Shown here: positions 37,744 through 38,264 of the stretch, in pieces
Numbering within the stretch: the stretch's first letter is position 1
Layout of the letters: each line of letters begins with the position of its first letter
NCBI RefSeq assembly: GCF_024502345.1
Contig: NZ_JALDNN010000001.1
Length of the DNA stretch: 64,000 nucleotides
Strand: one strand, 5' to 3'
DNA from: Escherichia coli
Lineage (GTDB): Bacteria > Pseudomonadota > Gammaproteobacteria > Enterobacterales > Enterobacteriaceae
Notes under the pieces: generated by a model
Database searches by the model: none
What the model was told of the DNA's origin: nothing
Seen by the model: only the letters and a program-made list of their open reading frames with translations
Made by a program: the position numbers and the translations under genes

Positions 37744-37854
37744 ATGCATGTGCTTAACATTCTCTGGGTAGTATTCGGTATCGGCCTGATGCTGGTACTG
37801 ACAAAGACCGCAGGTTCAGACACATTCGCTGCATTAGCAATGCCTCTTAGATAA
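37744..37854 (+). pseudogene. Short membrane-protein-like ORF divergent from uxuA; possible gntP remnant
   Basis: 36-codon [39 protein letters not shown] where K-12 has gntP (from memory); followed by repeats and IS1. Confidence 0.25.
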
Positions 37855-37959
37855 TTTTGACCTGTCAGTAAAAGACACGTTGAAAACCTGGGGTCTGCTG
37901 GAGCTGGTCAACTCCGTGGTTGGGCTGATTATTAGCAAGGTAGCGTAAAAGAACACCAG

Positions 37960-38130
37960 AGCCTGCCAATGGCAGGCTCTGACTGATGACAAAGTCTAAA
38001 AATGTGCCCGGACAGTCCCCTCGCCCCTCCGGGGAGAGGGTTAGGGTGAGGGGAACAGACCAGCAAAGTGCGCTTTGTTTATGCCAGATGCGACGCTGAC
38101 GCGTCTTATCTGGCCTACAAAGGGCTAACG
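37960..38130. repeat. REP/BIME-like palindromic repeat cluster
   Basis: cccctcgcccctccggggagagggttagggtgagggg and gccagatgcgacgctgacgcgtcttatctggcctaca palindromic units. Confidence 0.4.
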
Positions 38131-38264
38131 TGCAGGTTTTTAGCTTCAGGTAATATTGCGTAACTGCATTAGCAATGCCCTGTGATTTCTTTATTGATAA
38201 ACAAAAGTCGGTGATGCTGCCAACTTACTGATTTAGTGTATGATGGTGTTTTTGAGGTGCTCCA

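Follow-up and report, generated by a model that had tools for sequence, protein, structure and literature searches.

The interval between uxuA and the leuX island in the stretch of Escherichia coli DNA analysed here (64,000 nucleotides of contig NZ_JALDNN010000001.1; hereafter, the window) very probably carries two independent, non-functional deletion scars, that is, an old and widespread scar in gntP and a lineage-specific, IS1-bounded deletion of fim and part of the island. Both are ordinary, familiar kinds of gene loss. A preliminary description of the same DNA had proposed one deletion junction between uxuA and leuX; a derived, IS-bounded fim deletion is indeed present (with a 19-bp fimH stub, a truncated sce7725 gene and no target duplication), but the interval holds two scars and not one.

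The whole 64-kb window was compared by megablast with K-12 4,488,001–4,606,000, relative to which it runs in the opposite orientation, and the following blocks were matched:

18687–32276: backbone, colinear with K-12 4569763–4556162
33333–37801: yjiC', uxuR, uxuB, uxuA and the 5' end of gntP, colinear with K-12 4555707–4551239
37856–38209: the 3' end of gntP, the spacer and the last 19 bp of fimH, colinear with K-12 4550057–4549692
38208–38979: IS1, matching K-12 IS1F with 90% identity
52278–53581: leuX and ahr, colinear with K-12

Apart from IS1, megablast found no match in the window for K-12 4,496,493–4,549,691, and fim, nanCMS, fec and sgc are all absent from it, as the preliminary description had said of the fim operon and other K-12 genes up to leuX. 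Its reading of these genes as missing through deletion is right for fim, but most of them (fec, sgc, yjhF–I and IS copies) belong to KpLE2, the leuX island of K-12, and because leuX here carries a different island, their absence represents island replacement rather than loss. Over a 13-kb core stretch, the closest complete E. coli genome is 99.1% identical, and the leuX island of the window is covered by no complete E. coli genome searched.

The part of the window between uxuA and fimH is made up as follows:

36220–37404, minus strand: uxuA (mannonate dehydratase), intact; an ORF colinear with K-12 uxuA (98.9% identity) and annotated as uxuA in matching genomes
37405–37743: divergent uxuA–gntP intergenic regulatory region, intact; 335 of 339 bases as in K-12
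37744–37854, plus strand: 36-codon ORF, a pseudogene remnant; gntP codons 1–19 fused to 17 patch codons, ending in TAA
37790–37800, plus strand: retained direct-repeat copy (T)GCTGGTACTG at the gntP deletion junction; two copies in K-12 gntP, one here
37802–37855, plus strand: 54-bp diverged patch, colinear with gntP after the second repeat copy, with 1-bp and 13-bp deletions
37829–37844, plus strand: first copy of a repeated 16-mer, inside the patch, where K-12 gntP reads CACATTAACGATGCATC
37856–37948, plus strand: gntP 3' remnant, comprising the final 31 codons with the stop; carried as a partial pseudogene in the ATCC 8739 annotation
37955–37983: hairpin terminator between gntP and fimH, also in K-12
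38014–38052, plus strand: BoxC-like repeat native to the spacer, identical in K-12 at the same site
38087–38118, plus strand: canonical REP unit native to the spacer, identical in K-12 at the same site
38164–38179, plus strand: second copy of the 16-mer, in the native gntP–fimH spacer

As the preliminary description observed, all that diverges from uxuA (minus strand) is the 36-codon ORF (plus strand), beyond which come REP-like palindromes (the terminator, the BoxC-like repeat and the REP unit) and then IS1. The REP unit is one of 10 matches in the window to the consensus GATGCGRCGY...RCGYCTTATCNGGCCTAC, and the element at 38014–38052 is presumably a BoxC repeat, assigned by its consensus rather than by a curated model.

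The start of the 36-codon ORF is that of K-12 GntP (residues 1–19), and the left gntP junction ends exactly in the 10-mer GCTGGTACTG, which occurs twice in K-12 gntP (in frame with each other, at nt 48 and nt 1161) and once in the window (37791–37800). The intact K-12 allele thus has the repeat at each breakpoint, and one copy is kept at the junction, as in a direct-repeat deletion; the 3' copy of MS 115-1 and ST648 differs at one base (GCTGGTGCTG), the exact repeat being documented only in the K-12-type allele. In the megablast comparison, K-12 4550058–4551238 (1,181 bp) is replaced by 54 bp in the window, and what remains of a full-length gntP (about 447 codons with a GntP permease domain) is codons 1–19, the decayed patch and the last 31 codons. 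The 5' remnant matches K-12 at 54 of 58 bases, the 3' remnant at 91 of 92 and the downstream spacer at 257 of 262. The 3' remnant also contains a 12-bp deletion (at about 37900–37935) between CTGATTATT repeats, which is present in ATCC 8739 and absent from BH100 and K-12.

Of 5,426 complete E. coli genomes, 853, or about one in six, have the same gntP deletion junction, including O26, O103, ATCC 8739 and UTI89. Among these genomes the patch is identical to that of the window in 664 (O26, O103, ATCC 8739 and others), and 183 (UTI89 and BH100 among them) have a variant that is about 94% identical. In the 853 genomes fimH lies intact beside the scar and no IS is found at the junction. As there is no junction IS and the same allele recurs in so many genomes, the gntP scar is neither IS-associated nor specific to this genome; it is old, common and unrelated to IS1, and the earlier attribution of the 36-codon ORF to an IS-associated deletion does not hold. 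From the RefSeq gntP deletion allele (ATCC 8739, O26, O103 and UTI89) the window shows no material difference, that is, it carries the common haplotype. A literature search on the gntP deletion allele found nothing specific.

We infer from the sequence that the gntP scar arose by repeat-mediated deletion. Illegitimate recombination or misalignment between the in-frame (T)GCTGGTACTG copies would have removed 1,113 bp of gntP, after which the 54 bp past the junction may have decayed through 19 substitutions, a 1-bp deletion that shifted the frame into TAA and a 13-bp deletion. What remains would be the 36-codon ORF and, after it, the final 93 bp of gntP, the terminator and the native BoxC and REP elements, with the fructuronate transporter lost and uxuAB–uxuR and the shared promoter region kept intact. 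Such an event would resemble short-direct-repeat deletions (that is, RecA-independent deletions by slipped mispairing) in having 10–11-bp end repeats (in the intact K-12 allele) of which one copy is kept; it differs from them in that the junction precedes 54 bp that are unusually diverged, which the simple model does not predict.

Annotation of the remnant is uneven. In RefSeq it is labelled variously as a partial pseudogene, as 'GntT/GntP/DsdX family permease' or as 'hypothetical protein'; the exact 36-residue peptide occurs on at least 1,000 public contigs under the name 'Membrane protein [Escherichia coli]', and UniRef holds the stub as A0A0D7JE11_ECOLX, 'Membrane protein'. This last label is an annotation artefact, and the 36-residue 'membrane protein', being a gntP pseudogene stub, ought not to be counted among small-protein genes.

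The patch matches K-12 gntP at 35 positions and mismatches it at 19 over its 54 bp (65%), whereas its flanks are 93–99% identical, a difference that is not predicted by simple decay after a recent deletion. Its local alignment with gntP (for example, patch GCAGGTTCAGACACATTC-GCTGCATTAGCAATGCCTCTT pairs with K-12 GCGGGTTCCAACACCCTCACCCACATTAACGATGCATCTT) scores 30, against a shuffle mean of 15.2 (s.d. 2.9), and was equalled by 1 of 1,000 shuffles. The substitutions are spread evenly across the three codon positions (counted manually from the alignment), which makes it less likely that the patch came from a functional foreign orthologue. A BLAST search of 5,426 E. coli genomes at E ≤ 10 found no other copy of the patch, and a GntP-family paralogue was rejected as its origin on this ground and on the scores of idnT and yjhF, which are below that of gntP; the rejection holds for E. 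coli sources, with gntT, gntU, dsdX and ygbN covered through the genome-wide BLAST only. An ancient duplication between the 3' region of K-12 gntP and the spacer was likewise rejected (similarity not significant, p = 0.30). The deletion allele may be much older than its flanks, the flanks having been refreshed by recombination with intact alleles, or the patch may have been made in one error-prone or templated event.

The 16-mer CTGCATTAGCAATGCC, which the preliminary description had located at about 37830 and 38163 and proposed as a recombination junction, has exactly two copies in the window, 335 bp apart (0.00 expected from 100 shuffles), at 37829–37844 and 38164–38179. It would be tempting to read it as the mark of one large IS-associated deletion from uxuA to leuX, given that so exact a direct repeat is not expected by chance and that its first copy lies only 28 bp from the gntP breakpoint. 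We consider this extremely unlikely. With both copies still in place, the DNA between them was not deleted; the second is native spacer, present in ATCC 8739, in BH100 and, next to an intact gntP, in MS 115-1 and, as a variant with two mismatches (CAGCATTAGCAATGTC), in K-12, and the first is embedded in the decayed gntP patch. The sequences on either side of the two copies do not resemble each other (p = 0.17 and 0.38), which also led us to reject the patch as a copy of the gntP–fimH spacer beyond the 16-mer itself. Moreover, the gntP scar exists with an adjoining fimH and without an IS in the 853 genomes, and the true junctions fall at 37800/37801 and at the two IS1 termini, so that the 16-mer marks neither of them. 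A short tract copied into the patch from the spacer, by conversion or template switching, would account for its exactness.

Another reading is that the patch as a whole is not decayed gntP but filler DNA inserted at a break, partly templated by the spacer (the 16-mer) through microhomology-mediated template switching, with deletion and patch arising in one event. This would account for the exact 16-mer, the sharp contrast of 65% with 93–99% identity and the lack of a third-codon-position bias in the manual count, and microhomology already exists between CATTAACGATGC in gntP and CATTAGCAATGC in the spacer. Beyond the 16-mer, however, the patch is colinear with gntP (GCAGGTTCAGACAC versus GCGGGTTCCAACAC) and not with the spacer, and the UTI89/BH100 haplotype, which has 15 of the 16 bases of the first copy, is closer to gntP (CCCTACATTA..., ...GATTACTTTGACC) and looks like gradual divergence with at most a short conversion tract; we therefore regard the filler origin as quite unlikely. 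A further, tentative idea, which we hold to be improbable, is that the gntP-deletion haplotype is a very old presence/absence polymorphism that predates the phylogroup split, with the patch as a fossil shielded from recombination. It is suggested by the occurrence of the deletion in the O26, ATCC 8739 and UTI89 lineages and by the existence of two patch haplotypes (O26/ATCC 8739-type and UTI89-type) that are 5 of 54 bases apart. The flanks would have been homogenised repeatedly with intact alleles, and the junction could have been inherited only as a block. If true, this would imply that strains that have and strains that lack a fructuronate transporter gene near the recombination-prone fimH region have both been maintained over the long term, perhaps through balancing selection. 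The patch could serve to mark, date and trace a common gntP-null haplotype.

The second scar of the two-deletion reading lies at the other end of the spacer and consists of three adjoining parts:

38191–38209, minus strand: fimH stub, 19 of 903 bp; the stop, the last five codons (TFVYQ*) and one further nucleotide
38210–38977, plus strand: IS1, intact, 768 bp, with terminal inverted repeats, insA/insB' and the A6C motif
38978–39415, minus strand: C-terminal part of a sce7725-family gene without its last 89 bp (NCBIfam NF033831, E = 4e-52)

Both ends of the IS1 copy, as read from the sequence, agree with the imperfect terminal inverted repeats of about 23 bp expected of IS1 (GGTGATGCTGCCAACTTACTGAT and GGTAATGACTCCAACTTATTGAT). 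The copy is 90–99% identical to the IS1 copies of K-12, ST648 and EC2341, and contains ORFs at 38265–38540 (91 aa) and 38459–38962 (167 aa) with the A6C −1 frameshift motif TTTAAAAAAC at IS1 position 304. Its flanks (ACAAAAGTC and GATTATGTA) differ, that is, there is no 9-bp target duplication of the kind left by a simple insertion; in a control, a simple IS1 insertion in ET210, the 9-bp duplication GAGCTTTCC stands on both sides. The left flank (...TTATTGATAAACAAAAGTC) is the reverse complement of the fimH stop, the last five codons and one base, window position 38209 corresponding to K-12 4549692 and K-12 fimH ending at 4549710. On the right, 38978–39415 is 99.5% identical to positions 4001–4438 of the MS 115-1 locus, part of a leuX-island sce7725 gene that ends at 3912, and the truncated product is recorded as an E. 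coli protein (WP_256632845.1). A single IS therefore lies between flanks that do not adjoin each other in relatives, and the genes on both sides break off exactly at its termini, as expected of an IS-mediated deletion; relatives also have the intervening fim, nan and island genes.

Either intramolecular transposition of IS1 (adjacent deletion) or recombination between two directly oriented IS1 copies could have produced this scar, as both leave the same footprint; no intermediate (that is, an IS1 flanked by a duplication at fimH codon 295 or within sce7725) was found in the genomes searched, a result that is uninformative on the route. Which IS1 route was used, and the order and age of both events, we infer rather than observe. 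Lost with the deletion would be the fim operon from fimB to almost the end of fimH, any DNA past it and the distal portion of the leuX island. The loss from fimB to nearly all of fimH amounts to about 8.7 kb in K-12 terms, nanCMS lies beyond fim in ST648, EC2341 and K-12, and the distal island genes lost include, for example, the RES-domain gene that abuts sce7725 in MS 115-1 and ET210. The IS1-bounded fim deletion is derived and lineage-specific, and the strain, which should keep uxuAB, is predicted to be unable to make type 1 fimbriae and should lack fructuronate uptake.

Neither IS1 junction was found in 5,426 complete E. coli genomes, JGI metagenome contigs or GTDB species representatives, and the left one (fimH'/IS1) matches no other public sequence and is known from this assembly alone, which, with IS1 being multicopy, raises the question of whether two IS1 copies were collapsed into a false join between fimH' and the leuX island. 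Such an assembly artefact is very unlikely: both the IS1/sce7725' and the sce7725'/IS3 junction recur with 100% identity in six independent public contigs, so that the right junction is not artefactual; no fim, nan or fec gene occurs elsewhere in the 64-kb window, the backbone of which is colinear with K-12 on both sides; and NCBI lists the truncated sce7725 product on a contig of 4.74 Mb. That the arrangement is instead ancestral, or that IS1 inserted into a spacer already without fim and mediated no deletion, is almost certainly wrong. Parts of the fim/leuX region are missing in many E. coli, but here an in-frame 19-bp fimH end stands on one side and a gene cut 89 bp before its stop on the other, without a target duplication, and both truncations stop exactly at the IS1 termini.

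The IS1-bounded fim deletion has many parallels. In 341 of the 5,426 complete E. coli genomes an IS1 of the same orientation is found no more than about 0.6 kb from the fimH stop, and in ST648 and EC2341 a fimH stub (171 bp and 363 bp, respectively) is followed by IS1 and nanC, with the whole fim operon gone. Because both junctions differ between these two, they represent independent events at a deletion hotspot. Like the window, they have one IS1, in the same orientation, and a 3' fimH stub, have lost the fim operon and lack a target duplication, but their stubs are longer than the 19 bp here, and the deletion in the window passes nanCMS into the leuX island. In MS 115-1 IS1 joins fimA to the island, and in ATCC 8739 an IS3 lies after fimG. 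Distinct fim lesions were described in every Shigella and EIEC group (Bravo et al. 2015, PMC4374849), and E. coli C is missing all fim genes except fimH (PMC6805351). The window resembles both in the locus (uxuABR–gntP...leuX–yjgB/ahr), the absence of type 1 fimbriae, the presence of IS elements at the breakpoints and the lineage-specific position of the breakpoints. Its breakpoint (fimH codon ~295–IS1–sce7725) matches no arrangement reported there or seen in the genomes above, however, and, unlike the Shigella arrangements, it retains no yjhATS or fec genes; its truncated product, too, is recorded as E. coli. The breakpoint is thus new, and IS-bounded loss of fim at this site is recurrent and well known. 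One more independent case reinforces the fim/leuX junction as a hotspot of IS erosion in commensal E. coli and Shigella; beyond annotation, its importance is small.

Beyond the IS1 scar, the window continues into the leuX island, the features of which include:

39416–40673, minus strand: IS3, 1258 bp, a simple insertion in sce7725 with a 3-bp duplication
40674–41082, minus strand: N-terminal part of sce7725
52282–52366, minus strand: leuX, tRNA-Leu(CAA), the island attachment site, adjoining an integrase gene (50842–52092)

The island comprises the integrase, a DUF6387 gene, an IS903-like element, a 1062-aa autotransporter, a truncated methylase, sce7726 and the IS3-disrupted sce7725, and is a defence-type island different from KpLE2 of K-12. 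Its sce7725-family gene has been struck twice, by IS3 inside and by IS1 at its 3' end. The autotransporter (45318–48506; AIDA/MisL-like) is intact and directly abuts the IS903-like copy, with a truncated type I methylase fragment (44451–45254) just upstream; in E. coli O125ac C 236-04A a 99.7% identical gene, split by IS3, lies in an island adjoining a tRNA-Phe gene.

The IS903-like element (1057 bp; inverted repeat GGCTTTGTTGAATAAATC) is present in two 100% identical, inverted copies (32277–33333 and 48544–49600) 15.2 kb apart; between them lie uxuRBA, the gntP scar, IS1 and the greater part of the leuX island. No 9-bp target duplication accompanies either copy, even with the flanks swapped, and the copy at 32277–33333 replaces 455 bp of yjiC (K-12 4555708–4556161). 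We considered an inversion between the two copies and rejected it, as gene order and orientation are those of K-12 throughout and the swapped flanks give no duplication. A target duplication is thus missing for three of the four IS copies of the window (IS1 and both IS903-like copies). This and the 455-bp loss from yjiC lend slight support to the large IS-associated reductive evolution suggested in the preliminary description, but the 4,736,520-bp E. coli contig, which we take as the source chromosome, is not shrunken.

Elsewhere in the window, further differences from K-12 were observed. The idnK–idnDOTR operon (K-12 4490141–4495186) is absent between ahr and yjgR (window 53581–53672); ATCC 8739 and MS 115-1 are arranged alike, and from these sequences the absence is probably a common polymorphism and not a strain-specific loss. 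In place of the K-12 immigration control region (mrr, hsdRMS, mcrBC and yjiS–V), 5130–16500 holds unrelated genes, among them a different type I restriction-modification system at 8757–15645 (M-like, S-like and R subunits of 784, 424 and 1087 aa, respectively) and three ORFs without an NCBIfam match. At the left end of the window, the 3' part of hpaB and hpaC (4-hydroxyphenylacetate catabolism), which are absent from K-12, occupy 28–1286 and adjoin btsT.
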